From NCBI RefSeq assembly GCF_024223415.1, contig NZ_CP100500.1: a DNA stretch of 64,000 nt. The stretch is one strand, 5' to 3'. Source of the DNA: Escherichia coli (GTDB lineage Bacteria > Pseudomonadota > Gammaproteobacteria > Enterobacterales > Enterobacteriaceae). Positions 1 through 25,418 of this stretch are shown piece by piece. Numbering within the stretch: the stretch's first letter is position 1; each line of letters opens with the position of its first letter. The translations under genes and the position numbers were made by a program. The notes beneath the pieces were generated by a model that worked only from the letters and a program-made list of their open reading frames with translations, did no database searches and was not told the DNA's origin.

Positions 1-1559
1 GCGCAGGCTCAGGCAACGTTGTTAATTACGATCCCTCCAACGTGATTATGCTCACCGGACGCGCCTCCGTTGTGGAGCGGCTGACGGAAGTGATCCAGCG
101 TGTGGATCACGCGGGTAATCGCACTGAAGAGGTGATCCCGCTGGATAACGCCTCGGCTTCGGAAATCGCCCGCGTGCTGGAAAGCCTGACTAAAAACAGC
201 GGCGAGAACCAGCCTGCGACGCTGAAATCTCAAATTGTCGCCGACGAACGCACCAACAGTGTGATTGTCAGTGGTGACCCGGCCACGCGGGACAAAATGC
301 GCCGTCTGATCCGTCGGCTGGACTCAGAAATGGAGCGCAGCGGCAACAGCCAGGTTTTCTATCTCAAATACAGCAAAGCGGAAGATCTGGTCGATGTGCT
401 GAAGCAGGTCAGCGGCACGCTCACGGCGGCTAAAGAAGAGGCGGAAGGCACCGTCGGTAGCGGGCGTGAGGTTGTCTCCATCGCCGCCAGCAAACACAGT
501 AATGCCCTGATTGTTACTGCGCCGCAGGACATCATGCAGTCGCTGCAAAGCGTGATTGAACAACTGGATATTCGCCGTGCTCAGGTGCACGTCGAGGCGT
601 TGATCGTGGAAGTTGCCGAAGGTAGCAATATCAATTTCGGCGTGCAGTGGGCGTCGAAAGATGCCGGATTAATGCAGTTTGCTAACGGTACGCAGATCCC
701 TATTGGTACGCTGGGGGCAGCCATTTCTCAGGCGAAACCGCAGAAAGGCTCGACGGTGATCAGTGAAAACGGCGCTACCACCATTAATCCGGATACCAAC
801 GGCGATCTCTCCACGCTCGCCCAGCTTCTTTCCGGCTTTAGCGGTACGGCGGTTGGTGTGGTGAAAGGCGACTGGATGGCGCTGGTGCAGGCGGTTAAAA
901 ACGACTCCAGCTCTAACGTGCTCTCCACGCCGAGCATCACCACGCTGGACAACCAGGAAGCCTTCTTCATGGTGGGTCAGGACGTTCCGGTATTAACCGG
1001 CTCTACCGTTGGCTCCAATAACAGCAATCCTTTCAATACAGTAGAAAGGAAAAAAGTCGGCATCATGCTGAAAGTCACGCCGCAGATTAACGAAGGTAAC
1101 GCGGTACAGATGGTGATTGAGCAGGAAGTCTCGAAGGTGGAAGGACAGACCAGCCTCGACGTGGTGTTTGGTGAGCGCAAACTGAAAACCACCGTACTGG
1201 CTAACGATGGCGAGCTGATCGTGCTTGGCGGTCTGATGGACGACCAGGCGGGAGAAAGTGTGGCGAAAGTGCCGTTACTGGGCGATATCCCATTGATTGG
1301 TAACCTGTTTAAATCGACGGCGGATAAAAAAGAAAAACGTAACCTGATGGTGTTTATCCGCCCGACCATTCTGCGTGACGGTATGGCGGCAGACGGCGTG
1401 TCGCAGCGCAAATATAACTATATGCGCGCCGAGCAGATCTATCGCGATGAACAAGGCTTAAGCCTGATGCCGCACACCGCGCAGCCGGTACTGCCAGCGC
1501 AAAACCAGGCCTTACCGCCGGAAGTACGCGCGTTCCTCAATGCCGGGAGAACGCGTTAA
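1..1559 (+). CDS. gspD: Type II secretion secretin GspD, C-terminal part (5'-partial; reading frame open from nt 3)
   Basis: Frame open from window edge; translation ...[19 protein letters not shown]...[27 protein letters not shown]...[13 protein letters not shown] matches secretin C-domain pattern; followed by gspE-M in canonical order. Confidence 0.9.
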
Positions 1560-3052
1560 TGGTGCCTGTAGCACAGGAAACCACCGCTAACACCGTGCGT
1601 CTGCCCTACAGTTTCAGCCGTCGGTTTAGCCTGGTGGCATGGTGCGAAGCGTCGCTGGAGATCCTCCATGTTCATCCGTTGTCGCTCTCTGTTTTGCAGG
1701 AGCTACAGCGGGGGCTGAACGCGCCCTTTACGCTGCGGCAAATCGACGAGGCCGAATTTGAACAGCGGCTGAATGCGGTCTGGCAGCGGGACTCTTCCGA
1801 GGCTCGCCAGCTGATGGAAGATCTCGGTTCTGCTGAGGACTTTTTTACCCTCGCGGAAGAACTGCCAGAAACGGAAGATCTGCTGGAAAGTGATGACGAT
1901 GCGCCGATCATCAAACTGATCAACGCCATGCTGGCAGAGGCAATCAAAGAAGGCGCTTCGGATATCCACATCGAGACGTTTGAAAAGAGTCTGGTGATCC
2001 GTTTTCGCGTTGACGGCACATTACATGAAATGCTACGCCCTGGGCGCAAACTGGCCTCGCTGCTGGTATCGCGTATTAAGGTGATGGCACGGCTGGATAT
2101 CGCCGAAAAGCGCGTACCGCAGGATGGACGTATTGCGCTGCTGCTGGGCGGCCGGGCGATTGACGTGCGTGTCTCCACCATGCCTTCCGCCTGGGGTGAG
2201 CGCGTGGTGCTGCGACTGCTGGACAAAAATCAGGCCCGCCTGACGCTGGAGCGTCTGGGGTTGAGTCAGCAACTGACCGCGCAGTTGCGCCAGCTGTTAC
2301 ACAAACCGCACGGCATCTTTCTGGTGACGGGGCCGACGGGTTCCGGCAAAAGCACCACGCTGTATGCCGGATTGCAGGAGCTGAACAACCACTCGCGCAA
2401 CATTCTCACGGTTGAAGACCCCATCGAATACATGATTGAAGGGATAGGTCAGACGCAGGTTAACACTCGCGTCGGCATGACCTTCGCCCGTGGCCTGCGC
2501 GCGATTTTGCGTCAGGACCCGGATGTGGTGATGGTCGGTGAAATCCGCGATACCGAAACCGCAGAAATCGCTGTTCAGGCGTCGCTTACCGGGCATCTGG
2601 TGCTTTCCACGCTGCATACCAACACGGCGGTGGGGGCGATCACGCGTTTGCAGGATATGGGCGTGGAGCCTTTCCTGCTCTCTTCCAGTCTGACGGGCGT
2701 GATGGCGCAGCGACTGGTCCGCACGCTGTGCCCCGACTGCCGCCAGCCCGCGCCTGCCACTGACGAAGAAAAACGCCTGCTGGGAATTACCGACGTGCGT
2801 ACCGTCACTCTGTACCATCCGCAGGGCTGCCCCGCCTGTAATCACAAAGGTTTCCGCGGACGTACTGCCATCCATGAGCTGATCGTGGTAGACGCCACAT
2901 TGCGTGATTTGATCCACCGTCAGGCCGGGGAACTGGAGCTGGAACGTTATGTCCGGCAACACTCTGCGGGTATCCGCAGCAACGGCATTGAGAAAGTGCT
3001 CGCCGGAGAAACCTCTCTCGATGAAGTTCTGCGGGTAACCATGGAGGCGTAA
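1559..3052 (+). CDS. gspE: Type II secretion ATPase GspE
   Basis: 497 aa; Walker [10 protein letters not shown], Asp box, tetracysteine CPDC...CPAC near C-terminus; start overlaps gspD stop. Confidence 0.93.
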
Positions 3053-4275
3053 TGGCACTGTTTTACTATCAGGCGCTGGAGCGTAATGGTCGCAAAACCA
3101 AAGGCATGATTGAGGCGGATTCCGCACGTCATGCCCGTCAGCTATTGCGCGGTAAAGATCTCATTCCTGTGCATATTGAAACGCGGATGAATGCATCGGC
3201 AGGGGGAATGTTGCAGCGTCGGCGGCACGCACATCGTCGCGTGGCGGCGGCAGATCTGGCGCTGTTCACGCGCCAGCTGGCAACGCTGGTACAGGCAGCA
3301 ATGCCGCTTGAAACCTGCTTACAGGCGGTCAGTGAGCAAAGTGAAAAACTGCATGTGAAAAGCCTCGGAATGGCGCTGCGCAGCCGGATTCAGGAAGGTT
3401 ATACCCTGTCGGACAGCCTGCGCGAACATCCCCGCGTCTTTGATTCTCTGTTTTGTTCGATGGTTGCTGCCGGAGAAAAATCCGGGCATCTCGACGTGGT
3501 GCTTAATCGCCTGGCGGATTACACCGAACAGCGACAGCGCCTGAAATCACGTCTATTGCAGGCCATGCTCTATCCGCTGGTTCTGCTGGTGGTGGCAACG
3601 GGCGTGGTCACTATTTTGCTGACGGCAGTGGTGCCGAAAATCATCGAACAGTTCGATCACCTCGGACACGCGCTGCCCGCCACCACCCGCGCGCTTATCG
3701 CCATGAGTGACGCGTTACAGGCCAGCGGCGTTTACTGGCTGGCGGGATTGCTGGCGCTTCTGGTGTTGGGGCAACGGCTACTCAAAAATCCTGCGATGCG
3801 CCTGCGCTGGGATAAAACCTTGCTGCGCCTGCCTGTGACGGGGCGTGTTGCGCGCGGGCTGAATACGGCGCGGTTTTCCCGCACATTAAGCATTCTCACC
3901 GCCAGCAGTGTTCCGCTACTGGAAGGCATTCAGACCGCTGCCGCTGTGTCGGCAAATCGCTATGTCGAGCAACAACTGCTGCTGGCGGCAGATCGCGTCC
4001 GCGAAGGAAGCAGTCTGCGCGCCGCGCTGGCGGAGTTGCGCCTGTTCCCCCCGATGATGCTGTACATGATCGCCTCCGGCGAACAGAGCGGTGAACTGGA
4101 AACCATGCTTGAACAGGCCGCAGTTAACCAGGAGCGGGAATTTGATACCCAGGTGGGGCTGGCGTTAGGGCTGTTTGAGCCGGCGCTGGTGGTGATGATG
4201 GCGGGCGTGGTGCTGTTTATCGTCATCGCCATCCTCGAGCCGATGCTGCAACTGAACAATATGGTTGGAATGTAA
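3052..4275 (+). CDS. gspF: Type II secretion inner-membrane platform protein GspF
   Basis: 407 aa polytopic membrane protein immediately after gspE; typical size and position. Confidence 0.9.
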   Translation: MALFYYQALERNGRKTKGMIEADSARHARQLLRGKDLIPVHIETRMNASAGGMLQRRRHAHRRVAAADLALFTRQLATLVQAAMPLETCLQAVSEQSEKLHVKSLGMALRSRIQEGYTLSDSLREHPRVFDSLFCSMVAAGEKSGHLDVVLNRLADYTEQRQRLKSRLLQAMLYPLVLLVVATGVVTILLTAVVPKIIEQFDHLGHALPATTRALIAMSDALQASGVYWLAGLLALLVLGQRLLKNPAMRLRWDKTLLRLPVTGRVARGLNTARFSRTLSILTASSVPLLEGIQTAAAVSANRYVEQQLLLAADRVREGSSLRAALAELRLFPPMMLYMIASGEQSGELETMLEQAAVNQEREFDTQVGLALGLFEPALVVMMAGVVLFIVIAILEPMLQLNNMVGM

Positions 4276-4291
4276 TTTACGGAGTTATCAC

Positions 4292-4747
4292 ATGAATTCG
4301 TTATCCCGCACACAAAAACCACGGGCAGGTTTTACCCTGCTGGAAGTGATGGTGGTGATTGTTATTCTTGGCGTCCTGGCAAGTCTGGTGGTGCCTAACC
4401 TGTTGGGCAATAAAGAGAAAGCGGATCGGCAAAAAGCCATCAGCGATATCGTGGCGCTGGAAAACGCACTGGATATGTACCGACTGGATAACGGGCGTTA
4501 TCCAACTACCGAGCAGGGGCTTGAGGCGCTGATCCAGCAGCCAGCCAATATGGCGGATTCCCGCAACTACCGTACCGGTGGGTACATTAAACGACTGCCA
4601 AAAGATCCGTGGGGCAATGATTATCAGTATCTCAGCCCGGGTGAAAAAGGACTGTTTGATGTTTACACCCTGGGGGCGGATGGTCAGGAAAATGGGGAAG
4701 GTGCTGGCGCAGATATCGGTAACTGGAATTTGCAGGAGTTTCAGTAA
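4292..4747 (+). CDS. gspG: Major pseudopilin GspG (ORF track start 4265; ATG at 4292 preferred)
   Basis: Prepilin-type leader plus hydrophobic N-terminus ...GFTLLEVMVVIVILGVLASLVVP; ~150 aa. Confidence 0.88.
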   Translation: MNSLSRTQKPRAGFTLLEVMVVIVILGVLASLVVPNLLGNKEKADRQKAISDIVALENALDMYRLDNGRYPTTEQGLEALIQQPANMADSRNYRTGGYIKRLPKDPWGNDYQYLSPGEKGLFDVYTLGADGQENGEGAGADIGNWNLQEFQ

Positions 4748-4750
4748 GCA

Positions 4751-5314
4751 GTGCCTGAACGCGGATTCACACTTCTGGAAATCATGCTGGTGATTTTCCT
4801 TATCGGCCTTGCCAGTGCGGGCGTGGTACAGACTTTTGCGACCGATTCTGAATCGCCCGCGAAAAAAGCGGCGCAGGATTTTCTGACTCGCTTTGCGCAG
4901 TTTAAAGACAGGGCAGTGATCGAAGGGCAGACACTCGGTGTACTAATCGACCCGCCGGGATACCAGTTTATGCAACGTCGTCAGGGGCAGTGGTTGCCCG
5001 TTTCTGCGACCCGGTTATCGGCACAGGTTACGGTGCCGAAACAGGTGCAGATGCTGTTACAACCCGGAAGTGATATCTGGCAGAAGGAATATGCGCTGGA
5101 GCTGCAACGTCGTCGCCTGACGCTGCACGATATTGAACTGGAGTTGCAAAAAGAGGCGAAAAAGAAGACGCCGCAGATCCGTTTTTCGCCTTTTGAACCC
5201 GCCACGCCGTTTACGCTGCGCTTCTACTCAGCGGCGCAAAACGCATGTTGGGCGGTAAAACTGGCACACGATGGCGCGTTATCCCTCAGTCAATGTGATG
5301 AGAGGATGCCATGA
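4751..5314 (+). CDS. gspH: Minor pseudopilin GspH
   Basis: N-terminal RGFTLLEIMLVIFLIGL prepilin motif; operon position. Confidence 0.82.
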   Translation: MPERGFTLLEIMLVIFLIGLASAGVVQTFATDSESPAKKAAQDFLTRFAQFKDRAVIEGQTLGVLIDPPGYQFMQRRQGQWLPVSATRLSAQVTVPKQVQMLLQPGSDIWQKEYALELQRRRLTLHDIELELQKEAKKKTPQIRFSPFEPATPFTLRFYSAAQNACWAVKLAHDGALSLSQCDERMP

Positions 5315-5682
5315 AGCGCGGATTTACCTTGCTGGAAGTGATGCTCGCACTGGCGATTTTTGCGCTGGCTGCCACGGCGGTGTTACAGATTGCCAGCGGT
5401 GCGCTGAGTAATCAGCACGTTCTTGAGGAGAAAACGGTAGCAGGCTGGGTGGCTGAAAACCAGACCGCGCTGCTCTACCTGATGACCCGTGAACAACGGG
5501 CGGTCAGGCATCAGGGCGAGAGCGACATGGCAGGAAACCGCTGGTACTGGCGAACCACACCGCTGAATACAGGTAACGCGCTGCTCCAGGCGGTGGATAT
5601 TGAAGTCAGCCGTCACGAAGACTTTTCGTCGGTAATTCAGTCACGACGCGCCTGGTTTAGCGCCGTGGGAGGCCAACAGTGA
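5311..5682 (+). CDS. gspI: Minor pseudopilin GspI
   Basis: N-terminal KRGFTLLEVMLALAIFALA prepilin motif; 123 aa; overlaps neighbours by 4 nt. Confidence 0.82.
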   Translation: MKRGFTLLEVMLALAIFALAATAVLQIASGALSNQHVLEEKTVAGWVAENQTALLYLMTREQRAVRHQGESDMAGNRWYWRTTPLNTGNALLQAVDIEVSRHEDFSSVIQSRRAWFSAVGGQQ

Positions 5683-6284
5683 GAAGGGCTCGCGCTGGTT
5701 TCACGTTACTGGAAATGCTGGTGGCAATTGCCATTTTTGCCTCGCTGGCACTGATGGCGCAGCAGGTGACTAACGGCGTCACGCGCGTGAATAGCGCCGT
5801 CACCGGACACGATCAAAAACTAAACCTCATGCAGCAAACGATGAGTTTTCTGACCCACGATCTGACCCAAATGATGCCGCGTCCGGTAAGAGGCGATCAG
5901 GGCCAGCGTGAATCAGCGTTACTGGCGGGCGCTGGCGTGCTGGCGTCTGAGAGTGAAGGAATGCGCTTTGTACGCGGCGGCGTGGTTAATCCGTTGATGC
6001 GTCTGCCGCGCAGTAATCTGCTCACCGTCGGTTACCGCATTCATGACGGTTATCTCGAACGGTTAGCCTGGCCGCTGACCGACGCAGCAGGCAGCGTGAA
6101 GCCAACAACGCAAAAGTTGATTCCGGCGGATTCGCTCCGTTTGCAGTTCTACGACGGCACACGCTGGCAGGAGAGCTGGTCATCACTTCAGGCGATCCCA
6201 GTGGCGGTACGCATGACCCTGCACTCGCCGCAATGGGGCGAGATTGAACGCATCTGGTTGTTACGCGGGCCGCAATTATCATGA
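5679..6284 (+). CDS. gspJ: Minor pseudopilin GspJ
   Basis: N-terminal AGFTLLEMLVAIAIFASLAL prepilin motif; 201 aa. Confidence 0.82.
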   Translation: MRRARAGFTLLEMLVAIAIFASLALMAQQVTNGVTRVNSAVTGHDQKLNLMQQTMSFLTHDLTQMMPRPVRGDQGQRESALLAGAGVLASESEGMRFVRGGVVNPLMRLPRSNLLTVGYRIHDGYLERLAWPLTDAAGSVKPTTQKLIPADSLRLQFYDGTRWQESWSSLQAIPVAVRMTLHSPQWGEIERIWLLRGPQLS

Positions 6285-7258
6285 TCAGCTCACCACCAAA
6301 ACGCGGAATGGCACTGGTTGTGGTGCTGGTATTACTGGCAGTTATGATGCTGGTGACTATCACGCTTTCCGGGCGGATGCAGCAACAACTTGGGCGAACC
6401 CGCAGCCAGCAGGAGTACCAGCAGGCGCTGTGGTATAGCGCCAGTGCAGAAAGTCTGGCGTTGAGCGCACTCAGTCTGAGCCTGAAAAATGAAAAGCGCG
6501 TGCATCTGGCACAGCCGTGGGCTTCCGGCCCTCGTTTTTTCCCACTGCCGCAGGGGCAAATCGCCGTCACTCTGCGTGACGCACAGACGTGCTTTAACCT
6601 GAATGTCCTCGCTCAGCCGACGACGGCGTCGCGTCCGCTCGCGTTACAACAACTGATTGCCCTGATCTCGCGCCTCGATGTGCCTGCTTATCGGGCCGAA
6701 CTGATAGCCGAAAGCCTGTGGGAGTTTATTGATGAAGACCGCAGCGTGCAGACGCGTCTGGGCCGTGAAGACAGCGAATATCTCGCCCGCTCGGTGCCTT
6801 TCTACGCCGCCAATCAACCGCTGGCCGATATCAGCGAGATGCGCGTGGTGCAGGGAATGGACGCCGGGCTTTATCAAAAACTGAAACCGCTGGTCTGTGC
6901 GCTGCCGATGACCCGCCAGCAAATCAACATCAATACTTTAGACGTCACGCAAAGTGTGATTCTTGAGGCGCTGTTTGACCCGTGGTTAAGCCCTGTTCAG
7001 GCGCGGGCGTTATTACAACAACGTCCGGCGAAGGGCTGGGAAGATGTCGATCAGTTTCTTGCACAGCCGCTACTTGCTGACGTCGATGAGCGTACTAAAA
7101 AACAGCTAAAAACCGTCCTGAGCGTGGACAGCAATTACTTCTGGCTGCGTTCAGATATCACCGTGAATGAGATTGAACTGACGATGAATTCGTTAATTGT
7201 CCGCATGGGCCCACAGCACTTTTCTGTTCTCTGGCATCAGACAGGAGAAAGTGAGTGA
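6281..7258 (+). CDS. gspK: Minor pseudopilin GspK
   Basis: 325 aa, N-terminal hydrophobic segment, operon position after gspJ. Confidence 0.8.
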   Translation: MISSPPKRGMALVVVLVLLAVMMLVTITLSGRMQQQLGRTRSQQEYQQALWYSASAESLALSALSLSLKNEKRVHLAQPWASGPRFFPLPQGQIAVTLRDAQTCFNLNVLAQPTTASRPLALQQLIALISRLDVPAYRAELIAESLWEFIDEDRSVQTRLGREDSEYLARSVPFYAANQPLADISEMRVVQGMDAGLYQKLKPLVCALPMTRQQININTLDVTQSVILEALFDPWLSPVQARALLQQRPAKGWEDVDQFLAQPLLADVDERTKKQLKTVLSVDSNYFWLRSDITVNEIELTMNSLIVRMGPQHFSVLWHQTGESE

Positions 7259-8433
7259 GTTCCATCCTTGAGATTTTTTTCCCACTTTGCGCCGCTAATC
7301 CCATCCGTTGGCAGCGCCGTACTCCCGACGTGGAGCACGGTATCTGGCCTGACGTTGCTGACGAACGTCTCCAACAATGGCTGCAAACTGATGCGATTCG
7401 ACTCTACATTCCCGGCGAATGGATCAGCATCTGGCAGGTTGAACTGCCTGATGTCCCTCGCAAGCAGATACCAACTATTCTGCCCGCCTTACTGGAAGAA
7501 GAGCTGAACCAGGATATCGATGAACTGCATTTCGCCCCGTTGAAAATCGACCAGCAACTGGCAACCGTGGCAGTGATTCACCAACAGCATATGCGCAACA
7601 TTGCGCAGTGGTTGCAGGAAAACGGCATCACCCGCGCTACCGTCGCGCCAGACTGGATGTCTATTCCTTGTGGATTTATGGCTGGCGATGCGCAACGGGT
7701 TATCTGCCGCATCGATGAATGCCGGGGATGGAGCGCCGGGCGGGCGCTGGCTCCGGTCATGTTCCGCGCCCAGCTAAATGAGCAGGATTTACCGCTTTCG
7801 CTAACGGTAGTCGGCATTGCACCGGAAGAGCTATCAGCATGGGCTGGCGCAGATGCTGAACGCCTGACCGTTACGGCTCTGCCCGCCATTACCACTTATG
7901 GCGAACCGGAAGGGAACCTGCTAACAGGGCCGTGGCAGCCTCGCGTCAGCTACCGAAAACAGTGGGCGCGCTGGCGGGTGATGATTCTGCCGATATTGCT
8001 GATTCTGGTTGCGCTGGCAGTGGAACGGGGCGTGACGTTATGGAGCGTCAGCGAACAGGTGACGCAAAGCCGCGACCAGGCGGAGAAACAGTTCTTAACG
8101 TTGTTCCCAGAGCAGAAGCGGATTGTGAATTTACGCTCTCAGGTGACGATGGCGCTGAAAAAATATCGCCCACAGGCCGACGATACCCGGCTGCTCGCCG
8201 AGTTGTCAGCGATAGCAAGCACCCTGAAATCAGCGTCACTTTCCGACATCGAGATGCGTGGTTTCACCTTTGATCAAAAACGCCAGACGCTTCACCTCCA
8301 GTTGCGGGCAGCAAACTTTGCCAGTTTCGACAAACTGCGTAGTGCACTGGCAACCGATTATGTTGTGCAACAGGACGCGTTACAGAAAGAGGGTGATGCG
8401 GTTTCCGGCGGCGTAACGTTGCGGAGGAAATAA
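7255..8433 (+). CDS. gspL: Type II secretion protein GspL
   Basis: 392 aa, single internal TM segment (RWRVMILPILLILVALAV), operon position. Confidence 0.78.
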   Translation: MSSILEIFFPLCAANPIRWQRRTPDVEHGIWPDVADERLQQWLQTDAIRLYIPGEWISIWQVELPDVPRKQIPTILPALLEEELNQDIDELHFAPLKIDQQLATVAVIHQQHMRNIAQWLQENGITRATVAPDWMSIPCGFMAGDAQRVICRIDECRGWSAGRALAPVMFRAQLNEQDLPLSLTVVGIAPEELSAWAGADAERLTVTALPAITTYGEPEGNLLTGPWQPRVSYRKQWARWRVMILPILLILVALAVERGVTLWSVSEQVTQSRDQAEKQFLTLFPEQKRIVNLRSQVTMALKKYRPQADDTRLLAELSAIASTLKSASLSDIEMRGFTFDQKRQTLHLQLRAANFASFDKLRSALATDYVVQQDALQKEGDAVSGGVTLRRK

Positions 8434-8434
8434 C

Positions 8435-8971
8435 ATGTTACGCGATAATTTTATTCACTATTTTCAGCAATGGCGTGAACGCCAGTTAAGCCGTGGCGAA
8501 CACTGGCTGGCACAACACCTGGCGGGGCGTTCGCCGCGTGAAAAGGGCATGTTACTGGCAGCGGTGGTGTTCCTGTTTAGCGTCGGATATTACGTCCTCA
8601 TCTGGCAGCCGTTGAGCGAACGGATAGAACAACAGGAGACGATGTTGCAGCAGCTGGTGGCAATGAACACCCGACTGAAGAACGCCGCGCCGGATATTAT
8701 TGCAGCGCGAAAATCTGCCACAACAACGCCTGCGCAGGTATCGCGGGTCATCAGCGATAGTGCTTCTGCGCACTCAGTGGTTATCAAGCGGATAGCCGAG
8801 CGCGGGGAGAATATTCAGGTCTGGATAGAACCTGTGGTGTTTAATGATCTGCTGATCTGGTTAAACGCACTGGATGAAAAATATGCGCTGCGGGTAACAC
8901 AAATTGATGTCAGTGCTGCTGAGAAGCTTGGGATGGTGAATGTGCAGCGGCTGGAGTTTGGACGGGGGTAA
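8435..8971 (+). CDS. gspM: Type II secretion protein GspM
   Basis: 178 aa, N-terminal TM (LLAAVVFLFSVGYYVLIW), last gene of operon. Confidence 0.78.
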   Translation: MLRDNFIHYFQQWRERQLSRGEHWLAQHLAGRSPREKGMLLAAVVFLFSVGYYVLIWQPLSERIEQQETMLQQLVAMNTRLKNAAPDIIAARKSATTTPAQVSRVISDSASAHSVVIKRIAERGENIQVWIEPVVFNDLLIWLNALDEKYALRVTQIDVSAAEKLGMVNVQRLEFGRG

Positions 8972-9077: not shown

Positions 9078-9110
9078 AAAAGCAAAAACCCGCCTTGTGG
9101 GCGGGTTCTT
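9078..9110. terminator. Bidirectional rho-independent terminator hairpin (cccgcc-ttgtg-ggcggg flanked by T-runs on both strands)
   Basis: GC stem 9089-9105 with ttctt downstream on + strand and tttttgctttt downstream on - strand; lies between gspM stop and the tRNA-Phe 3' fragment. Confidence 0.55.
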
Positions 9111-9119
9111 AAGAATTAG

Positions 9120-9139
9120 TGGTGCCCGGACTCGGAATC
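9120..9139 (-). repeat. 20-nt fragment identical to the 3' end of tRNA-Phe (GATTCCGAGTCCGGGCACCA); candidate island attachment-site repeat
   Basis: Reverse complement of tggtgcccggactcggaatc equals the tRNA-Phe acceptor/T-arm 3' end including CCA; upstream tRNA body is absent. Confidence 0.7.
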
Positions 9140-9326
9140 ATATCCACGATTAACATACTGTTTGTTATTGGTTTTGTTGCGATTTCTTGTAAACAGCGCC
9201 CCCACTAAAGCCCCCATAAAAAATCGCTTTGGTTTTGTGAGGGTTATCACGAAAAATCAATGTTAAGTGGAGGGCTTCGTTATGTGTGGAGTTATGACCC
9301 TGGCCCAAAATCAGTGCAGTGCTAAA

Positions 9327-10200
9327 TCAGAGATCTTCGTCTTTCCGGAGACTTCGGATGAATTCAGCCGGAGTCATGTCATTTAATGATGAATGCGTCC
9401 TTTCATGATTGTATTCCCTGCGCCAGCTGTCGAGTTTGTCCTGCGCATCTTCCAGTGACAGGAACCAGTGAATGTTCAGACACTCATCCCGTAGACTGCC
9501 GTTAAATGATTCAATAAACGGGTTATCTGTCGGCTTCCCGGGGCGCGAGAAGTCCATGGTCACTCCGTGTTCATACGCCCATTTATCCAGACTTTTTGAG
9601 ATAAACTCGCTGCCGTTATCTGTCTGAATACGTACCGGCAGGCGCTTACCCGGCACCCGCAACCCTTCCATCACACCGACCACATCCTCGCCTTTCAGCG
9701 ACTTTCCGGCATGGATCGCCAGACACTCCCGACTAAAATTATCGACTACAGTCAGCGCCCGGAAACGCCGTCCGTTAAACAGATTATCCGACACGAAATC
9801 CATATTCCAGCACTGATCGACACCGGTCAGGATGGGACGCTGTTGGCGATGTGCTGCACTGACATGCCTGCACGGACGTTTTCTCCGCAGGTTAAGTCCT
9901 TCCAGACAATAAATCCGGTGTGTTTTCTTGTGGTTAACAGGCCAGCCTTCCTGCCGTAACTGGATATGAATACGCGGGCAACCGTAGCGGATCCGGGTTT
10001 CCGCTATCTCCCTGATGCGCAGGGTTATCGCCCGATCATCTCGCCGACTCTGCCAGTGGTAAACGGTTCTGCTCTGTATCAGCAGTCCACATCCCCGTCG
10101 GACACTGATACGGTAAGCTTCCCGCAGAAAATGTACCGCCTGACGCTTCTGAGCCGGCCTCAGAACTTTTGTTTCAGTACCTCCTGCAACATCTCCTTAT
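9327..10200 (-). pseudogene. IS3-family transposase OrfB (DDE integrase core), disrupted by a frameshift near 9960
   Basis: Manual translation: one frame gives ...ITLRIREIAETRIRYGCPRIHIQ then stops; a second frame resumes LRQEGWPVNHKKTHRIYCLEGLNLRRKRP...MDFVSDNLFNGRRFRALTVVDNFSRE...TDNGSEF...; continuity needs a 1-nt shift. Confidence 0.65.
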
Positions 10201-10426
10201 CCAGACTCAGATCAGCCACCAGTTTCTTCAGCCGCTGATTTTCATCCTCCAGTTGCCGCAGACGCCGCAGTTCCGTCACGCCCAGACCGGCAAATTTCTT
10301 CTTCCAGTTGTAAAAGGTGGCCTCAGAAATACCCATCTTTCTGCAGACTTCCCCGACGCGGGTGCCGGTTTCGGCCTGTTTCAGCGCAAACGCAATCTGT
10401 TCTTCGGTATAACGGGTCTTTTTCAT
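10160..10426 (-). CDS. IS3-family transposase OrfA (HTH, leucine-zipper region)
   Basis: MKKTRYTEEQIAFALKQAETGTRVGEVCRKMGISEATFYNWKKKF... typical IS3-family OrfA. Confidence 0.85.
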   Translation of the reverse strand: MKKTRYTEEQIAFALKQAETGTRVGEVCRKMGISEATFYNWKKKFAGLGVTELRRLRQLEDENQRLKKLVADLSLDKEMLQEVLKQKF

Positions 10427-10554
10427 GGTAATAAGCCTCTCTGTGAGCAGGAAGAAAGACCGGAGACTTCAGTTTAGACTGGTACTGTTTTCAGGGGGGA
10501 GATCAGTTAGGTTCACACATAACGAATTCTAAAAACACCGCCCTAAATTTTCCG

Positions 10555-12786
10555 CTAGTTCTCTACCATCAACCGGGCAAGCTTGGCAAAAATCGAACAC
10601 TTGCTGCTTTCACCGCTCCTGAGCATATCCAGGGTAAAGCTATTGAGATAAACGCCAGTTAACGGGTGGCTAAATACATCTACGGCTTTGCCTTGGGCAT
10701 CCCATATCAGCAGATTTTCCACCAGGTTAGGCCGTGCAATAGTAGGATTTGTAGGCTGGGCATCGCTTACCAGAACAAATACACCATTCTCATGCGGTTG
10801 CAGATAAATATGGTGATGCTTCATCTTTTGCGCTTTGGTCAGCGAGTCGTATTTCGAGCGGCCAGGTGATATCAGATAGGGCAGTACGTTTTGATCCGGT
10901 TTTGCAGAGCGGGTGATGGCGTACCCGTTAAATTTATCCCCTTTACGCTCTGCCAGAGTTTTTTCTTGTTCCTGATAAGCGTATGAATCGACGATATTAA
11001 ATTGCGCCGGGCCAATCAGGCGCGGTACGCGGGAGCTGTTGTAGGTGGTAAGCAGGACATCTGCTGTGTGGTCGTAGAGATAGAAGCTTTTGTCGAATAA
11101 TTTCTTTAATCGTCCCAGAGAGGGGGGATCAACAGACAGATAGTCTAATTTACCTTCAGCGATCCCGGTATCAACCACCCTAAGTTGGCCGTGTTCTATT
11201 TTTAGTTCGACATATCCAAGCAGGGGGAGATAGCTTTTCGTTTTGCGTACTGCATAGGCGGTATAGTGCCCGTCCGCCAAATCTGGTAGTGGGATGTGAT
11301 GCTGATTGAGTAAGCTCTCTTTGAACCATAGCTCGGTTTTTGTTCGGCGAACCTTACTGTTAAGTAAGGTAACTGCTGACTTGAGACGACTGTGAGGCTT
11401 CGTAAGATCGATTTCGTATTGAGTAGGGTTGCTTGTCAATTGTTCATTAATAAAATCAATCGCATCCAACAACTTGTGATCAATATTCATACCCTGTAAG
11501 ACTACGGGCAGAGGTTGCTGATTTAGCCACCCTTGCAAACGATCTAGTTTAAGCTGGGTATAAGTATCCCAATTGAGTTCGGGTTGTTTTCGGGCGTCGG
11601 CAAAGGCCGCATAGAAATCATTGTACTCAACAGATTCATTATCTTGCTGGCGGATGCTGTTGCTCCGCTCTTCATCTACTGCATTGAGTACCAGAATAGA
11701 TGTACTGGCAGGCAGCTCAGAAAAGCCGGTTTGCTGAGAATGTTTAAGCGACGCCAGAGGCCAGAGTTGATACCCGGGGAACTGGATGGCTAATGTGTCA
11801 AAGAAATAAGCTTCTTGCGTGGCGCTAAATTCGACGCCGTTATTAACCACCAACAGCGTATTAGTCAGTTGTTGATCGAGGTCGGTAGCGAACTGATTGA
11901 CCTCGTGGGTGGCCTGAAATGCGATAGGCTGATGCGGGATCTCTAGTTCACTGAGCCGCTCGCAGGCGGCATTCATGACCACGTTATAGGTATAGGCCTG
12001 GCATTCACCATAGCCGCTGCGCTCACGAAAAAAGTCCAGTTTGCTATCCCGGGCATCGAGTTTGCGCCGGGCTTTGAGCCGACGATTATCGATGTTAAAC
12101 CACACGCAGGTATCGTCCAGAGAGAGATGCAATTCATCCTCCGGTTCGACCAGAAATTTTCGTTTGTGCAGGGTAAAGGCGAGTTCGTTATATTCTGATG
12201 CATAAATGTCGAGTTCGAATGCCTCCATCACTCCAGTGCCGCTTTTCTGCGTGACGGGCTGACTCAGGCGAGCGTTGAGATAGAACGTAGAGTTGAAGTA
12301 GGTTGGCGGTACCGAAAAGCGCTCGCTGGCTTGTTCCAGCATTACCATTTTCAAATGCAGACTGAACAATCCCTGAATCAGGCGAGATAAATCATAATTT
12401 TCAGCTGTGAGTCGCTGGCAAAGCGTTTCAATGCGTTCTGCCAAAGTCCGATGCGCTAGGCTGTTCGGTGCAGCAGCAGGCGCCAGGAAAAAAAAGACGT
12501 GATGGTAATTGGGTAAGCAATGCAGCTCATATTTTACTTCCTGTCCGGCCTCAAGCCCAAGCTTCTGCCGCACGCAAGTTTTTACCTCCTGATGAATTCG
12601 CGCATAGTAATCAGCGGATTTTTCTTTTCGCTCTTTAGTAAAGTGCTGAACCATAAAGTCTATCGTATAGATATTAGATACCGGGGCCAATAGACGCTGG
12701 ATTGTTGTCAGCTGATCTTCTTCAAGCTTGATCAAATTGGTACGGGCAATCGGAGTATCCGTCAGCTCATTCAGATTAGGGATCAT
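10555..12786 (-). CDS. Hypothetical 743-aa protein, last gene of the five-gene operon; no recognisable catalytic motif
   Basis: Long uninterrupted ORF; ATG overlaps stop of upstream gene in ATGA arrangement; no Walker, HKD, HNH or methyltransferase motifs seen by eye. Confidence 0.6.
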   Translation of the reverse strand: MIPNLNELTDTPIARTNLIKLEEDQLTTIQRLLAPVSNIYTIDFMVQHFTKERKEKSADYYARIHQEVKTCVRQKLGLEAGQEVKYELHCLPNYHHVFFFLAPAAAPNSLAHRTLAERIETLCQRLTAENYDLSRLIQGLFSLHLKMVMLEQASERFSVPPTYFNSTFYLNARLSQPVTQKSGTGVMEAFELDIYASEYNELAFTLHKRKFLVEPEDELHLSLDDTCVWFNIDNRRLKARRKLDARDSKLDFFRERSGYGECQAYTYNVVMNAACERLSELEIPHQPIAFQATHEVNQFATDLDQQLTNTLLVVNNGVEFSATQEAYFFDTLAIQFPGYQLWPLASLKHSQQTGFSELPASTSILVLNAVDEERSNSIRQQDNESVEYNDFYAAFADARKQPELNWDTYTQLKLDRLQGWLNQQPLPVVLQGMNIDHKLLDAIDFINEQLTSNPTQYEIDLTKPHSRLKSAVTLLNSKVRRTKTELWFKESLLNQHHIPLPDLADGHYTAYAVRKTKSYLPLLGYVELKIEHGQLRVVDTGIAEGKLDYLSVDPPSLGRLKKLFDKSFYLYDHTADVLLTTYNSSRVPRLIGPAQFNIVDSYAYQEQEKTLAERKGDKFNGYAITRSAKPDQNVLPYLISPGRSKYDSLTKAQKMKHHHIYLQPHENGVFVLVSDAQPTNPTIARPNLVENLLIWDAQGKAVDVFSHPLTGVYLNSFTLDMLRSGESSKCSIFAKLARLMVEN

Positions 12787-15700
12787 GATACTTTTCCTTT
12801 AGTCGGCAACTTTTCTACACCCAGCAGGGTTAGTAACATTGGGTTTATATCCAATGTCATGCGCAGTTTCGAGTTTTCCTGAGCGCGTCCGCTCTCTCGA
12901 TTTTTGGGCTGATAATACTGGTAGTCAGTTTGCAACAGGTTGAGGTAGTGGATCGTGTGATCCACATTATCCTGCCACATCAGATTATTAGGGTTCTGGC
13001 TGTAGGCGACGTTCAGATAGATAAATCGAATACGTTCATAACGGCCTGCCAGCGCCGTCTGGAGCTGTTTCTGCCCCTCAGTATCCGCCTTTTGGCTGGC
13101 GATATTACGGATCTGGCGAATCTTGTTGTCGCTTTTCTCAAGCGTTTCTTCTGCCCGCGTCAAATCGTCCAACTGTGTCGCCCAGCGCTTAACGTCGATG
13201 CAGAGCAGGTCGTCGCCCACTTCAATAAAGCGGTCAAAAAACTCATAGACCAGCGGTTCAAGGCGTTCAAACACCTGCTGGTCGGAGAGTGGGGTAACAC
13301 CATAACTTTTTAGCACTTTATCGAAGAGATATTCACCGACATTGCCTTTGAGCAACGGAACTAGCCTGGGGTTGGGTACCCATTTTTTGAATGCCTTTTC
13401 CTGGATGTTGTCACATTCACGAATCAACTCGCCGACCAGGTTGCCGGGGGTAAAATCGACATCGTTTCTATACTGCGGAAAGAGGGTGAGCTCTGGCCGG
13501 TACTCTCTTGCGCCGCCAGCGAAATCCGACAGGGCGGAATAATCTCTGTGGGCAAGTCCATCCGGGCCGCGTTTGTGGCAAAGTAAAATCGTTTGATTCC
13601 CTTGCTGACGATCGATAAACAGAGCGTCGTGAACAGATTGCATTTGTCGATTGGCGGTATACAAGGGATTAGCCTGGAGTTTTGCCAGCCAGCGCTGGGG
13701 ATCGGTAAAGGAGTCAGGATCGCGGAATAAATTACATATCTCGAGATAATCGAGATTGCCAGCGCGTACCTTATTAATCCAGTCGGTTTTAAGGACACGT
13801 TTGTGAATTTCATCGATGCGGCGACCATTCGCGACGATAGCTTGCTCAAACGTCAGTCGCTGTTCCGCATTATTGAATGACTGGCCCTGACTCAGCTTTT
13901 CGCACTCCTCCATGAGTCGGTGGTTAAGCAAAGACATACTTTCTGATACCACCTCGTTACCGCTATCTTCACTAAGAGCGGCGAACTGAAATGCAACATT
14001 ACGGAACACATCGCGGGGTAAAAAGATTTCTGTTTTCAATAGAGTGTCGCGACGCTCGACTCGCCCTACGGCCTGCACGACGACTTTGAATAAGCTCATA
14101 TCATGTTCGGCCATTAACAGGCGATAGTTTTCGCCGTGGGCGAAATTAACGTTGAAATCGGCCAGCTTGTGGACGGTAATATCGTCATCGGCGTAGTGTT
14201 TAAGCACGGTAACGTAGTTAGGTAATGTATTGAGGTTGCCGCTGTTGTCCTTTACTTCGCTGTAAAACGAGGAGTTGATGAGCACTAAGCGCTCAAAATC
14301 GACATCCAGACGTGGTGCATTGATATCATTAATATCGCCGTCATGGTATTTAACAAAGTAGTTGAGGCCGGTACCCGCACTTTTATAACTGCTCATAAAT
14401 ACCAGTACGGTATTGCTGTTCTGGAGATAGGTTTCTTGCCTGATATCTTCGACATTAGCCAGTGGTGAATCGAAAAAGACCAAATGGACGGTGTGACGCC
14501 CTTTGAATGGGGTAAAGGTCAGGATCTGGTCATGTTTCTTACCGTTATCCGTTTTTTCATCGCACCGGGAGTGCATACCGTACTGCTGACGCCAGGTTGT
14601 CTGGTGCGTGCGCCAGGCGCTGATAAAGGCCCGCTTAAACGTCCCTGAAAGTGACAGAATCAGGCTGTTTTTACCCTCCCAGGCGGCAAGCAGTAACGCT
14701 TCCAGTTCCCGCTGGCACTGACGCCGTTTATAGGTATTTTTCAGGTCGTATTCCAGCGGTTTCTTCAGCGCGTCGAAAAAGTTGTCATACGTCCTGCGAT
14801 AGATTTCACAATTTTGGTAGATATCGGTCAATTTTAACTGCTTATCATCGAACACCCTGAAGTCTACGTTGCGGATACTGGCCCTCAACCCGCGTAATGC
14901 CTTAAGCGTATCGATATCTGCCTTTTCGCGTTCAACGACCCGGTAGCCAAGGTCGCGGCTATAGTGCGCCAGGAAGTGACGATTGAAGTTACCGTTTTTG
15001 GTGTGGCTAAAACCGCTGGTGGCGCTAAGCCCAATTACTTTATTGTGCGTGCCGGTTAATAAACGCAGCAGCATGGCTTCAGGCAACTCTTGTACCAGAT
15101 CCATCTCGAACGCCAGAATAATTGTGCGCTCGGCTCCCCTGTTCACGTAATTGAGTTCAGCTATCGGCGTCATCGTGAATACGGTTTTGGGTTGCAGGTA
15201 AGTGTAGAAATGATCAATCAACAAGTTTTTATCGGTGGTGCGATCGAAGATATGTCGCACCACGCCGGCTACGTTATTGGCTGCGTCAACAAACTGGCCC
15301 AAAGGCGTATTCTGGCTGCTGGAGTTGTCCTGGCCACCATTCTTTACCCAGCGCTTAAAGTGCCGGTTGGTGATTTCAGAACAGGCGGCGAGGATGACGG
15401 AGACCAACTGGAACAGATCGTGCAGAGTGGGGTTGGTGTCATTGGCATCATTTTCGACTTCGTAATACAGTTCGGTGCGCGTTATGTCGCCTTCGCTGTT
15501 GCGCATGCGAATGCGTTTCAGCCCTTCTTCATTGACGTACATTTTGGGGTTAAAGCTGAATACGTTGCGGGTGATTGAGATGATGCGTTCGGCGGCGTCG
15601 CCGTTGACTTCAAATGCCCCTAACTGGTCACGAAACATCTCCAGGATCGATCCCAGCCTTGTACCGGGGGATAGTTCGCACTTTTCCGCCAGTAAATTGC

Positions 15701-17498
15701 GCAGAGTAGTGATGAATTTGACCATCTCTTGCTCAAAGGTCGTTTGCGCTTCTTTGGGCTTGTTTCGGCGTTCTAAGCTGAGTACCGCGTTGTGAATACG
15801 TCCTGCGACGGAAATAACGTGCGCCAGGTTATTTTCCTGTGTGATTAGCTTTACATGGCATGTTTCTTCAAGGCGAGTGTAGGCTTCATGTAGTTCATCA
15901 ATGATCACCGTAAAACGAATATTTTTCTGGCGAAAAGGACAATCTGGATTGCGTCTGAAGTGTTCGTCGCGAAGATAGGTAACCTGCCCGGTATGACCGG
16001 CTGCCGCAACGGTGCTAATCTGTGGATCTTTGGGAGTCAGCTTACCGCCAATCAGCAAGTCGAAACCTACGGACTCAAAACGCACACCTTCGCCTCGCTG
16101 ACGAGGCGCCAGTCGGTAAGTTGATGTGTCGAACTTATTCGTGGTCATTAATAGCACTGACGGGCGGTACTGGCAAACTTCGAAAGGCAATACCTGTTTG
16201 ATAAGCTCGAAATAGACTTCGTGTACGCTTATCTTAGGTTCAAGCTTTCCTGGTTTTCGTGCTGTCTCCGCGTTTTGCATTCGCTCTTGCCGCGCCTGGA
16301 GCCCGCGACGAATGTACTCTTTAATGGAAGCTTTTTCACTATCTGGTCCAAATAGTAATTTACAGGCTGACTCAATCGTATTGCGGATACTGTGACGGCA
16401 GTTTTTTAGCTGTTCTTCGAGAATTTCTCTTTCGTAGTTGGTATCCTGAGAACCGTATGTTGTCAGCTTTTTTAACTGCTCTTCACAGCGATCAATTTGT
16501 AAGACATGATAATTGAGCGAACGAATAGCGCCGCCGATATATTTGCTGCCTTTCGCCCCTTCGTACCACTGAATATAGCTGTCGCGGTTTTTCAGACCAG
16601 AGGCCCAGTCCATAAAGTCGAGGTCGGCAACATCCTTACGGGAGAGAACGCAAATGAACTCGCCGCTAGCGGCCAGAATTTTCTCTTTCTGACTGCTGTC
16701 CAGGTCGATTTGTGATTTTTGCGGTGACATGAATAGCAGGTTGGTAAAGCCACCTTCAGGAAACAGATCGTCTGACTTTTGGGTTTTGGCGAAGCGCTCC
16801 AGATATTCGACATACCCTTGGATCACGCCATAGCTTTTGCCGAACCCCGTGCCGTCGGAACTGAAGATGACCTCAGCGCCATCACGTTCATGCACGTGGT
16901 AAAGTTGAGAGACTTGGGCGCGACAGGCGTTAATCTCTTTAATCAGCGTTATGTCAGGAATTTGCCTAGAGATGAGATCTTGCAGATTATTATTGATATT
17001 TTTCTCTCCAACACGCTCACACTTGCGGTAACTATTGATGGTTATTTGGCCGCTGTCGATCAGAATCTTTTCCACCTGTATGGGGGCAAGATGCAAGGCT
17101 GTCGCGATTTCATTGATAGTATTGGACAGTGGTTCGTGTGGATTGCTAATCGTGAAGTGGTTTAGTGCTGCCGCAACGGTATCTGGATGCAATGCTTTTC
17201 TGAGGGTGGGAAAGGTGAGGCTGTAATCGTATAGCGCCAAATCATTGCTTATCAGGCAGCGAAACAGTTGTTTAGTGGGATCGCCACCAGGACGGCTGGC
17301 AAATCCCAAGATTTTTGCCTGTTCGAGGCGATAAAGCAATGCTGCGGCATCGCGGTCAGGTGAGTCAAATGCATCGTGGAGCTGCTGGCTAAATGGCATT
17401 GTGGCATTCAGCCGGTTATGGCTGACCAGCGCGGAAAAGAGCTGACGCACCAAGGTTAGCAGCTTACAATCTTCCTCTATAGTCCAGCTTTTTCTCAT
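12783..17498 (-). CDS. Large SF2-type helicase-like ATPase (~1571 aa from preferred start; ORF track start 17534) with unusually long inter-motif insertions
   Basis: Walker A DGTGFGKSYG, Walker B IIDELHE, motif III LSATSG, motif VI QAVGRVERR spread over ~930 aa; strong SD (AAGGGGAAGAAGA) before ATG at 17498, 11 nt after upstream stop. Confidence 0.6.
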   Translation of the reverse strand: MRKSWTIEEDCKLLTLVRQLFSALVSHNRLNATMPFSQQLHDAFDSPDRDAAALLYRLEQAKILGFASRPGGDPTKQLFRCLISNDLALYDYSLTFPTLRKALHPDTVAAALNHFTISNPHEPLSNTINEIATALHLAPIQVEKILIDSGQITINSYRKCERVGEKNINNNLQDLISRQIPDITLIKEINACRAQVSQLYHVHERDGAEVIFSSDGTGFGKSYGVIQGYVEYLERFAKTQKSDDLFPEGGFTNLLFMSPQKSQIDLDSSQKEKILAASGEFICVLSRKDVADLDFMDWASGLKNRDSYIQWYEGAKGSKYIGGAIRSLNYHVLQIDRCEEQLKKLTTYGSQDTNYEREILEEQLKNCRHSIRNTIESACKLLFGPDSEKASIKEYIRRGLQARQERMQNAETARKPGKLEPKISVHEVYFELIKQVLPFEVCQYRPSVLLMTTNKFDTSTYRLAPRQRGEGVRFESVGFDLLIGGKLTPKDPQISTVAAAGHTGQVTYLRDEHFRRNPDCPFRQKNIRFTVIIDELHEAYTRLEETCHVKLITQENNLAHVISVAGRIHNAVLSLERRNKPKEAQTTFEQEMVKFITTLRNLLAEKCELSPGTRLGSILEMFRDQLGAFEVNGDAAERIISITRNVFSFNPKMYVNEEGLKRIRMRNSEGDITRTELYYEVENDANDTNPTLHDLFQLVSVILAACSEITNRHFKRWVKNGGQDNSSSQNTPLGQFVDAANNVAGVVRHIFDRTTDKNLLIDHFYTYLQPKTVFTMTPIAELNYVNRGAERTIILAFEMDLVQELPEAMLLRLLTGTHNKVIGLSATSGFSHTKNGNFNRHFLAHYSRDLGYRVVEREKADIDTLKALRGLRASIRNVDFRVFDDKQLKLTDIYQNCEIYRRTYDNFFDALKKPLEYDLKNTYKRRQCQRELEALLLAAWEGKNSLILSLSGTFKRAFISAWRTHQTTWRQQYGMHSRCDEKTDNGKKHDQILTFTPFKGRHTVHLVFFDSPLANVEDIRQETYLQNSNTVLVFMSSYKSAGTGLNYFVKYHDGDINDINAPRLDVDFERLVLINSSFYSEVKDNSGNLNTLPNYVTVLKHYADDDITVHKLADFNVNFAHGENYRLLMAEHDMSLFKVVVQAVGRVERRDTLLKTEIFLPRDVFRNVAFQFAALSEDSGNEVVSESMSLLNHRLMEECEKLSQGQSFNNAEQRLTFEQAIVANGRRIDEIHKRVLKTDWINKVRAGNLDYLEICNLFRDPDSFTDPQRWLAKLQANPLYTANRQMQSVHDALFIDRQQGNQTILLCHKRGPDGLAHRDYSALSDFAGGAREYRPELTLFPQYRNDVDFTPGNLVGELIRECDNIQEKAFKKWVPNPRLVPLLKGNVGEYLFDKVLKSYGVTPLSDQQVFERLEPLVYEFFDRFIEVGDDLLCIDVKRWATQLDDLTRAEETLEKSDNKIRQIRNIASQKADTEGQKQLQTALAGRYERIRFIYLNVAYSQNPNNLMWQDNVDHTIHYLNLLQTDYQYYQPKNRESGRAQENSKLRMTLDINPMLLTLLGVEKLPTKGKVS

Positions 17499-17509
17499 TC
17501 TTCTTCCCC

Positions 17510-21021: not shown

Positions 21022-21024
21022 AAA

Positions 21025-23352: not shown

Positions 23353-23535
23353 TCCTTGCCCTTAATCGCTGATAACGCTTCCCGGCATTGTTCTACGATA
23401 GGCAAAGGCGGTAAGCATAAAACTGGAAGAGAGATCGTAAAATGATACCGCGAATGGGCTAGAGTACAAGCATAAAAACCCTATTATTCAAAAGGATTAT
23501 GTCATATGGCTGGGGGAGCAATTGGCAGGACCAGG

Positions 23536-25262: not shown

Positions 25263-25418
25263 TATATCCCTTGTGTAGCAAGGAGTCTAACCTAAAAAAT
25301 GTCAGTAATATTCATTCTATGACAATGTTTAAAATGGCAGATATCAGTGAGGTAGCTTGCTGTAGGAAATTCCGACGATAAAATACCCACATACAGCAGG
25401 CGGTGATAAGGATATAGC

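Follow-up and report, generated by a model that had tools for sequence, protein, structure and literature searches.

A single complete insertion sequence (IS) of the IS3 family lies just beyond the phage-defence gene array of a pheV-integrated genomic island in Escherichia coli, and it very probably arrived there by normal transposition into a GTTA target in the loop of a 13-bp hairpin, deleted nothing, and has since been carried as a quiescent passenger. The window analysed here is a 64,000-nt stretch of contig NZ_CP100500.1 (RefSeq assembly GCF_024223415.1). The element is an ordinary IS3-family insertion that is already annotated, and re-examining it serves mainly to correct the record: the transposase shows no degeneration, none of the defence genes beside it is truncated, and the two-gene cassette next to the IS has the same stop codon whether or not the IS is present. 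Two small points may be of specialist interest, namely an antisense segment of the IS that matches the Salmonella RNA IsrN, and the position of the insertion in the loop of the region's strongest perfect hairpin.

Boundaries, termini and target-site duplication

The IS occupies positions 9295 to 10505 on the minus strand (1211 bp), limits that are supported by alignment with plasmid copies, by a target-site duplication and by an empty site in a related genome. More than 900 plasmid copies from Klebsiella, Salmonella and other hosts could be aligned with it, matching its positions 1-1211 end to end, with a best identity of 93.6%. Read in the orientation of the IS, the element begins and ends 5'-TGATC...GGTCA-3', and its termini (TGATCTCC... 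and ...GGGTCA) form imperfect TG...CA inverted repeats that align over approximately 50 nt in a pairwise alignment. The left terminal inverted repeat (IRL; 10456 to 10505, minus strand) carries the outer TG, an end that is conserved in relatives, while the right repeat (IRR; 9295 to 9344, minus strand) carries the outer CA. Directly repeated copies of GTTA flank the element at positions 9291 to 9294 and 10506 to 10509. The IS has the same orientation as the gene array, is separated by 49 nt (10506 to 10554) from the stop codon of the 743-aa gene with which the array ends, and is present in the window as one copy.

The preliminary description of this DNA correctly recognised an IS3-family element that uses a programmed orfA/orfB frameshift and abuts the five-gene array at its 3' end (orfB is in the -1 frame, and element and array are both on the minus strand), and the target-site duplication that it proposed to look for is indeed present as the 4-bp GTTA at both IS ends. 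Its limits of 9300 to 10496 locate the element approximately, but the plasmid alignments, the GTTA repeat and a 1215-bp gap in the comparison presented below place the exact ends at 9295 and 10505. Likewise, the spacing from the stop codon, previously put at about 60 nt, measures 49 nt. The 13-bp inverted repeat found outside the IS (9276-9288 and 10514-10526) was considered as the ends of a longer element and rejected, because its arms lie next to each other as a simple hairpin in the IS-free locus and because the plasmid copies match only positions 9295-10505.

Genomic island context

The window is chromosomal E. coli DNA and carries the type II secretion (T2SS-beta) genes gspD to gspL and yghD (42-8971, plus strand). 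Homology to K-12-type chromosomes stops at position 9139, inside pheV, and the segment from 9120 to 9139 (minus strand) therefore repeats the last 20 nt of this tRNA-Phe gene and is the att repeat at which the genomic island has its distal end. Between this repeat and the IS lie 155 bp of island DNA. No complete tRNA gene is found in the window, which implies that the island extends over more than 55 kb. The pheV intrinsic terminator (9083 to 9111, minus strand) has been retained, and no other canonical terminator lies downstream of the array on that strand.

The array itself is encoded on the minus strand and runs towards the IS. Read leftwards on this strand, the island end carries AbiEi/AbiEii (25262-23536, minus strand), upstream of the array, followed by SngA (TerB-domain protein; 23352-21025; PADLOC 4.6e-97), SngB (ATPase; 21021-19705; PADLOC 4.1e-187) and SngC (helicase; 19708-17510; PADLOC 1.2e-273), whose genes are adjacent and thus constitute a Shango defence system. 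Next comes a large gene (17498/17534-12783) that encodes 1571 or 1583 aa according to which start codon is used and matches no model, and then the last gene of the array (10555 to 12786; 2232 nt, 743 aa), which is not truncated and belongs to no known family. Searches of Pfam and PADLOC (both to E = 10), NCBIfam and PDB sequences yielded no family for either of these two proteins.

A third, unrelated genomic context bears on how these genes are grouped. FDAARGOS_1259 has the two large genes next to an integrase remnant, with no Shango genes; both end at the same codon as in the window, the shared sequence reaches no further than the stop codon, and the hairpin after it is another one. Hence, the array described previously as a five-gene operon does comprise five tightly spaced genes, but it is a juxtaposition of Shango (SngABC) and an independent two-gene cassette. 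With no recognisable family for either product, this cassette is a more unusual object than the IS beside it.

Comparison with an IS-free locus

The two flanks of the IS were joined without the element and used as a search query. One uninterrupted match was obtained, in E. coli R32_14_1F (NZ_CP074749), at 90.8% identity. This genome carries the same yghD/pheV-remnant junction and the same five genes plus AbiE, but no IS. The window and R32_14_1F are collinear, with a single gap of 1215 bp that corresponds to the IS and its 4-bp duplication. The empty site reads GGAGTCAGGTT in R32_14_1F, as compared to GGAGTTA-[IS]-GTTAGGTT in the window, and a single GTCA is found in R32_14_1F where the window has the GTTA duplication. 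The last gene of the array has the same length in R32_14_1F (2232 nt, 743 aa) and the same C-terminus (...KLARLMVEN*), and a second IS-free locus agrees in both respects.

These data are consistent with normal transposition into a GTTA that lay 49 nt past the defence-gene array, with 155 bp remaining to the distal island end; nothing was deleted and no gene was truncated. It had been proposed that the insertion might have removed further genes or the terminator of the operon. As nothing is missing relative to the IS-free R32_14_1F, where the array ends at the same position without an IS, the flanks are collinear and the last of the same five genes is full-length, a loss of genes is contradicted. 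A lost terminator fares no better, the pheV terminator at 9111-9083 being the only canonical one downstream in IS-bearing and IS-free loci alike.

The split hairpin and the neighbouring gene array

What the insertion did change is a hairpin. Its two arms, TTCGTTATGTGTG (9276 to 9288) and CACACATAACGAA (10514 to 10526), are now separated by the IS, whereas in the IS-free locus they form an intact structure. The reconstructed hairpin starts 29 nt past the stop codon and has a perfect 13-bp stem of about -17 kcal/mol and a 10-nt loop that holds the target GTTA. R32_14_1F, approximately 9% diverged, retains it with 12 of the 13 pairs. The hairpin does not have the features of a rho-independent terminator, as only 5 of its 13 pairs are G-C and it is followed by GCCCUCCACUU rather than by a U-tract; terminator prediction on the IS-free locus does not call it, whereas both loci yield a call for the pheV terminator. 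The hairpin belongs to the island backbone and not to the gene cassette, as the third context shares no homology past the stop codon. It occurs once in the window, with no sign of being a repeated element there, and searches of Rfam for a known RNA family in the hairpin or the 3' region returned sub-threshold matches only.

The distance from the stop codon to the pheV terminator has increased from approximately 230 nt to approximately 1440 nt as a result of the insertion. Since the IS is co-oriented with the array, any read-through transcription from the array would enter the IS and orfA in the sense direction. A consensus scan found no outward promoter-like site in the IS that faces the array. 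The single promoter-like site that was found (9433-9405, minus strand) points instead to the att remnant and the pheV terminator, and transcription leaving the IS on the side opposite the array would run into these two features and into no gene.

It is against this background that a disruptive effect of the insertion, by removal of a terminator or of downstream genes, or by altered defence-gene expression through loss of the 3' hairpin or antisense transcription from the IS, must be judged improbable. Such an effect could draw on the splitting of a perfect hairpin close to the stop codon that is preserved in a diverged IS-free locus, and on the fact that some IS407-group elements carry outward promoters (PMC3281130). 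It is opposed by the completeness of the flanking sequence and of the last array gene, by the lack of a U-tract and of a terminator call for the hairpin, and by its assignment to the island backbone. In addition, no plus-strand promoter-like site faces the array, and the isrN-like antisense unit described below has a terminator-like site of its own within the IS. The suggestion that outward IS transcription affects the operon is thus not supported for this element, which lies downstream of the array and in the same orientation. If the insertion took place as we propose, its local consequence would be limited to a split hairpin in the 3' untranslated region and a longer distance to the pheV terminator, and we assume from the sequence that it is neutral for the array. 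There is nevertheless a possibility that the split hairpin, having been conserved in a locus of approximately 9% divergence, could be relevant to mRNA 3'-end formation or stability.

Choice of the target site

The location of the insertion in the loop of this hairpin raises the question of whether the element seeks out hairpins or cruciforms in DNA, such that its position reflects structure-specific targeting and not chance. In the 62.8-kb window without the IS, no perfect hairpin other than the reconstructed target has a stem of at least 13 bp, and a random insertion would fall into a hairpin loop closed by a stem of at least 10 bp with a probability of approximately 0.001. These figures, however, describe a single event that was noticed after the fact, and sites that survive to be sequenced are biased towards intergenic, non-essential positions. 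A survey of 35 genome loci with the IRL pattern and of 15 more copies, taken from plasmids and from a single E. coli chromosome, recovered retained duplications in only two relatives, CCGG on a Salmonella IncC plasmid and AAAA in E. coli CI5, neither of which lies in a hairpin, and the other sites examined show no comparable palindrome. It should be noted that most surveyed copies lack duplications, are truncated, or lie at contig ends, so that the survey has little power as a test of targeting. On balance, we regard structure-specific targeting as very unlikely.

A broader model can be built on the same observation, in which extruded palindromes at transcription-unit 3' ends are the preferred targets of this IS lineage, the transposase mRNA of the IS, co-oriented behind the array with the hairpin destroyed, is fed by read-through from the array, and an isrN-type antisense RNA provides buffering. 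Were it true, IS activity would be coupled to the expression of phage-defence genes, but we consider this model to have only a very slight chance of being correct.

An intact transposase gene with one predicted programmed frameshift

The coding capacity of the IS is that of a complete IS3-family element. The first reading frame, orfA (10160 to 10426, minus strand), encodes 88 aa with an HTH_Tnp_1 DNA-binding domain (Pfam match across residues 1-71, 86 bits) followed by a leucine-rich heptad stretch. The orfB frame (9327 to 10196, minus strand), which is -1 relative to orfA, consists of 289 open codons, compared to 294 in intact relatives, and encodes complete HTH_21, rve and rve_3 domains. The 366-aa OrfAB fusion contains the catalytic DDE triad (D210, D270 and E306) in DD(35)E spacing, 35 residues separating the second D from the E. 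It matches the NCBIfam model NF033516 (transpos_IS3) with 310.9 bits, against a cut-off of 160, over profile positions 1-368 of 369. The RefSeq/PGAP annotation agrees, as WP_087888794.1 is an intact CDS with a single programmed frameshift and no pseudogene flag.

Translation of all three minus-strand frames was used to evaluate an additional frameshift reported near position 9960. No such frameshift exists: the -1 frame is continuous from 10196 to its stop at 9327 and passes through 9960 (...IHIQLRQEGWPVNHKK...). In the absence of a second frameshift, the transposase is intact. The error is likely to have had two sources. First, spurious antisense open reading frames on the plus strand (9711-9959 and 9966-10238) break at 9960. 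Second, the orfB frame contains no ATG, GTG or TTG before 9803, and a list of open reading frames that requires start codons therefore shows only 158 aa of it (9327-9803). That the IS is a decaying copy, rendered an immobile pseudogene by a non-programmed frameshift in orfB, can be dismissed as next to impossible, for the truncated minus-strand entry in that list, the plus-strand breaks and the single-copy state of the IS in each genome carrying it are outweighed by an open frame of nearly the length found in relatives, an almost full-length profile match with complete catalytic domains, and an annotation free of any pseudogene flag.

Synthesis of the transposase would depend on one programmed event. 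The predicted -1 slip site, A_AAG (10166 to 10169, minus strand), lies in the context CTG AAA CAA AAG TTC TGA and is followed directly on its 3' side by a 7-bp stem-loop, UUCUGAG-GCCGG-CUCAGAA (10147 to 10165, minus strand), a putative stimulator of frameshifting. A_AAG is a minimal site for -1 shifting, used by IS1222 and, in extended form, by IS3 (PMC5009743). It is kept in all relatives compared, and Klebsiella copies have the full A_AAA_AAG heptamer at the same spot. The stem-loop is also conserved in relatives, and the region containing slip site and stem-loop folds better than shuffled controls (z = -3.1). Ordinary translation of orfA would yield OrfA, the HTH protein, whereas a single programmed -1 frameshift at A_AAG, aided by the hairpin that follows, would yield the OrfAB transposase with its DD(35)E motif. 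We infer this mode of expression from the arrangement of the frames and the signals between them. The sequence of the A_AAG-hairpin cassette is CTGAAACAAAAGTTCTGAGGCCGGCTCAGAA.

An isrN-type segment on the opposite strand

The opposite strand of the IS contains a full-length match to the Rfam family isrN (RF01396) at positions 10025 to 10161 (plus strand), in antisense orientation opposite the 3'-terminal part of orfA and the beginning of orfB. The covariance model is matched over positions 1-143 of 143 with 72.2 bits, above the gathering score of 44 (E = 1e-15), and all six IS relatives tested (6/6) have a match as well. The frameshift-region palindrome and a run of T residues (10166-10175), read together on the plus strand, score as an intrinsic terminator (10147-10175). 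These features suggest that an isrN-type antisense RNA gene may be present, with a terminator that would be the complement of the frameshift hairpin and slip site. Some caution is warranted, since the match falls within protein-coding sequence and its conservation may only reflect that of orfB. Furthermore, the Rfam alignment contains many non-canonical pairs here, and a simple consensus scan found no promoter-like site upstream of 10025. Expression of an isrN-type RNA from the IS in this strain is accordingly offered as a prediction.

Distribution and apparent quiescence

Among 5,426 complete E. coli genomes, this IS variant (at least 99.8% identical) is present in 19, with one copy each and always at this locus. 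The 19 strains come from human, pig, chicken, mink and waste water. The remaining E. coli matches in this set are to the Klebsiella-plasmid form, at 90.8%, or are more distant. All close (at least 99%) versions of the island end carry the IS, and the sole IS-free version is the diverged one; the insertion is thus fixed in one E. coli island lineage, and old enough to have become so. With its presence in 19 of the 5,426 genomes, the IS may be used as a lineage marker for the pheV island. As it has left no second copy, the element behaves as a quiescent passenger, and its single-copy state in all 19 genomes could mean that it is inactive despite intact reading frames. A simple scan of the IRL detected no sigma-70-like promoter for the transposase.

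Relationship to known elements

No specific IS name is assigned to the element in PGAP, PLSDB or NCBIfam, where it appears only as IS3 family. Its OrfA begins with MKK.R.TEEQI..LK.AE.G..V.E.CRK.GIS, a pattern typical of the IS407 subgroup. By size, by the 4-bp duplication and by this similarity of OrfA, the element is most like members of that subgroup and may belong to it. IS407-group elements measure 1.2-1.27 kb and mostly generate 4-bp repeats (PMC3281130), and the 1211 bp and 4 bp observed here agree with the expected range of approximately 1.1-1.4 kb and a 4-bp duplication.

The closest relatives are the IS of Klebsiella virulence/IncFIB plasmids and Salmonella plasmids, which are also 1210-1211 bp in length and share the ends, gene layout, frameshift position, hairpin and isrN match. 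They are 90-93.6% identical to the present IS in DNA and up to 97.5% identical in OrfAB, and are represented in RefSeq as 'IS3 family transposase' by WP_108703685.1 (Klebsiella michiganensis NZ_CP029143), WP_104895297.1 and WP_088348988.1. The E. coli chromosomal variant is distinguished from these plasmid copies by a DNA identity of at most 93.6% and by its slip sequence, which is A_CAA_AAG as opposed to A_AAA_AAG in Klebsiella. Among named elements in the collections searched, the nearest is ISYpe1 of Yersinia pestis (annotated by PGAP as 'IS3-like element ISYpe1 family transposase'), with 77.7% amino acid identity over the whole OrfAB and the same two-piece frameshifted layout, yet it is too divergent to be regarded as the same IS. 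Further named relatives include ISSisp1 (53%), ISSen4 (44%), IS1400 (42%), ISKpn20 (37%) and ISXac2 (36%).

More generally, the element resembles IS3, IS911 and IS2 in encoding OrfA and a -1 OrfAB fusion, in its DDE transposase and in its TG...CA ends. Those elements belong to other subgroups and generate 3- or 5-bp duplications. The likeness to IS1222 lies in -1 frameshifting on A_AAG (PMC5009743). Transposition of the present element would be expected to proceed as in the IS3 family, for which one account outlines a figure-of-eight followed by a minicircle (PMC3219604).

With respect to target choice, the point of comparison is provided by IS1397 and ISKpn1. These are IS3-family elements that insert into REP/PU hairpins, a systematic specificity for a repeated genomic palindrome. 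The present insertion is similar in that it lies in the loop of a palindrome, but it differs in that the hairpin is unique in the window and relatives of the element do not have hairpin targets.

Finally, the isrN match invites comparison with the IsrN of Salmonella Typhimurium. This RNA is 143 nt long, overlaps the transposase gene STM2765 at its 3' end and appears in stationary phase, and the level of STM2765 mRNA rises when it is over-expressed (PMC2330248). The match in the E. coli IS is full-length and has the same convergent placement over the 3' end of orfA. In LT2, IsrN has been described as an island-encoded small RNA located between two annotated genes, whereas the match here is part of an intact IS and runs entirely antisense, opposite the beginning of orfB. 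The 'island sRNA' IsrN of Salmonella would correspond to a segment that this IS lineage conserves in antisense over the frameshift region.

DNA flanking the right end in relatives of the IS

Among relatives of the IS3-family element (9295-10505, minus strand), one and the same sequence of about 50 bp (...GGGATCTCAAAAAATGCATGGAACTAAAACGGGTCTATTTACA) lies directly outside the right terminal inverted repeat (IRR); it recurs in six or more distinct contexts (related loci L005, L007, L016, L020, L030, L033, L051, L052 and L054). This abutting sequence resembles a Tn3-family terminal repeat (…GTGGAACGAAAAC…). Because the same sequence repeatedly abuts the IRR, and because at two of the loci (L005 and L007) a gene annotated as 'transposase' comes after it, these data suggest that the IS lineage is recurrently associated with the end of another transposon. 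The sequence is absent from the window. At three other loci (L006, L008 and L029), the IRR region of about 50 bp is tandemly duplicated immediately outside the element, and most plasmid copies of the IS relatives are missing target duplications, a pattern suggesting that the right end is often rearranged.

The isrN segment within the IS

The Rfam family isrN is described as an Hfq-binding sRNA encoded on a Salmonella island. The matching segment lies inside the IS (10025-10175, plus strand), is a conserved antisense segment of the IS lineage, and covers the frameshift region that joins the transposase frames orfA and orfB. The terminator predicted for this segment is formed by the strand complementary to the frameshift hairpin plus slip site.

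Island boundary at pheV

The 3' end of pheV is present as a 20-nt copy (the att repeat, 9120-9139); with the pheV terminator that follows it (9083-9111), this copy marks the distal boundary of a pheV-integrated island of more than 55 kb. A search for tRNA genes across the window found none, which means that the integrase and an intact pheV have to be located outside it. A 44-aa ORF (MITLTKPKRFFMGALVGALF...; 9116-9250, minus strand) crosses the att repeat from the island end. Its core (GGGGGCTTTAGTGGGGGCGCTG) is kept in the IS-free locus of E. coli R32_14_1F, PGAP leaves the ORF unannotated, and it is probably spurious.

Defence and candidate defence genes of the island

Two large, translationally coupled genes (10555-17534, minus strand), encoding products of 1571 or 1583 aa and of 743 aa, lie between the Shango system and the island end. 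No match to either product was found in Pfam, PADLOC (both also at E = 10), NCBIfam or the PDB sequences. By-eye inspection of the larger protein noted helicase-like motifs (GTGFGKS, DELHE and SATSG). Since the pair stands alone in E. coli FDAARGOS_1259, with Shango absent and an integrase remnant adjoining, it looks like an independent candidate defence cassette.

Several defence systems cluster at 17510-27614, namely Shango SngA/B/C (23352-17510, minus strand), AbiEi/AbiEii (25262-23536, minus strand) and a candidate PDC-S06 AAA-ATPase (25419-27614, plus strand). In the IS-free relative R32_14_1F, the position held here by PDC-S06 is instead occupied by an 'ATP-dependent nuclease'.
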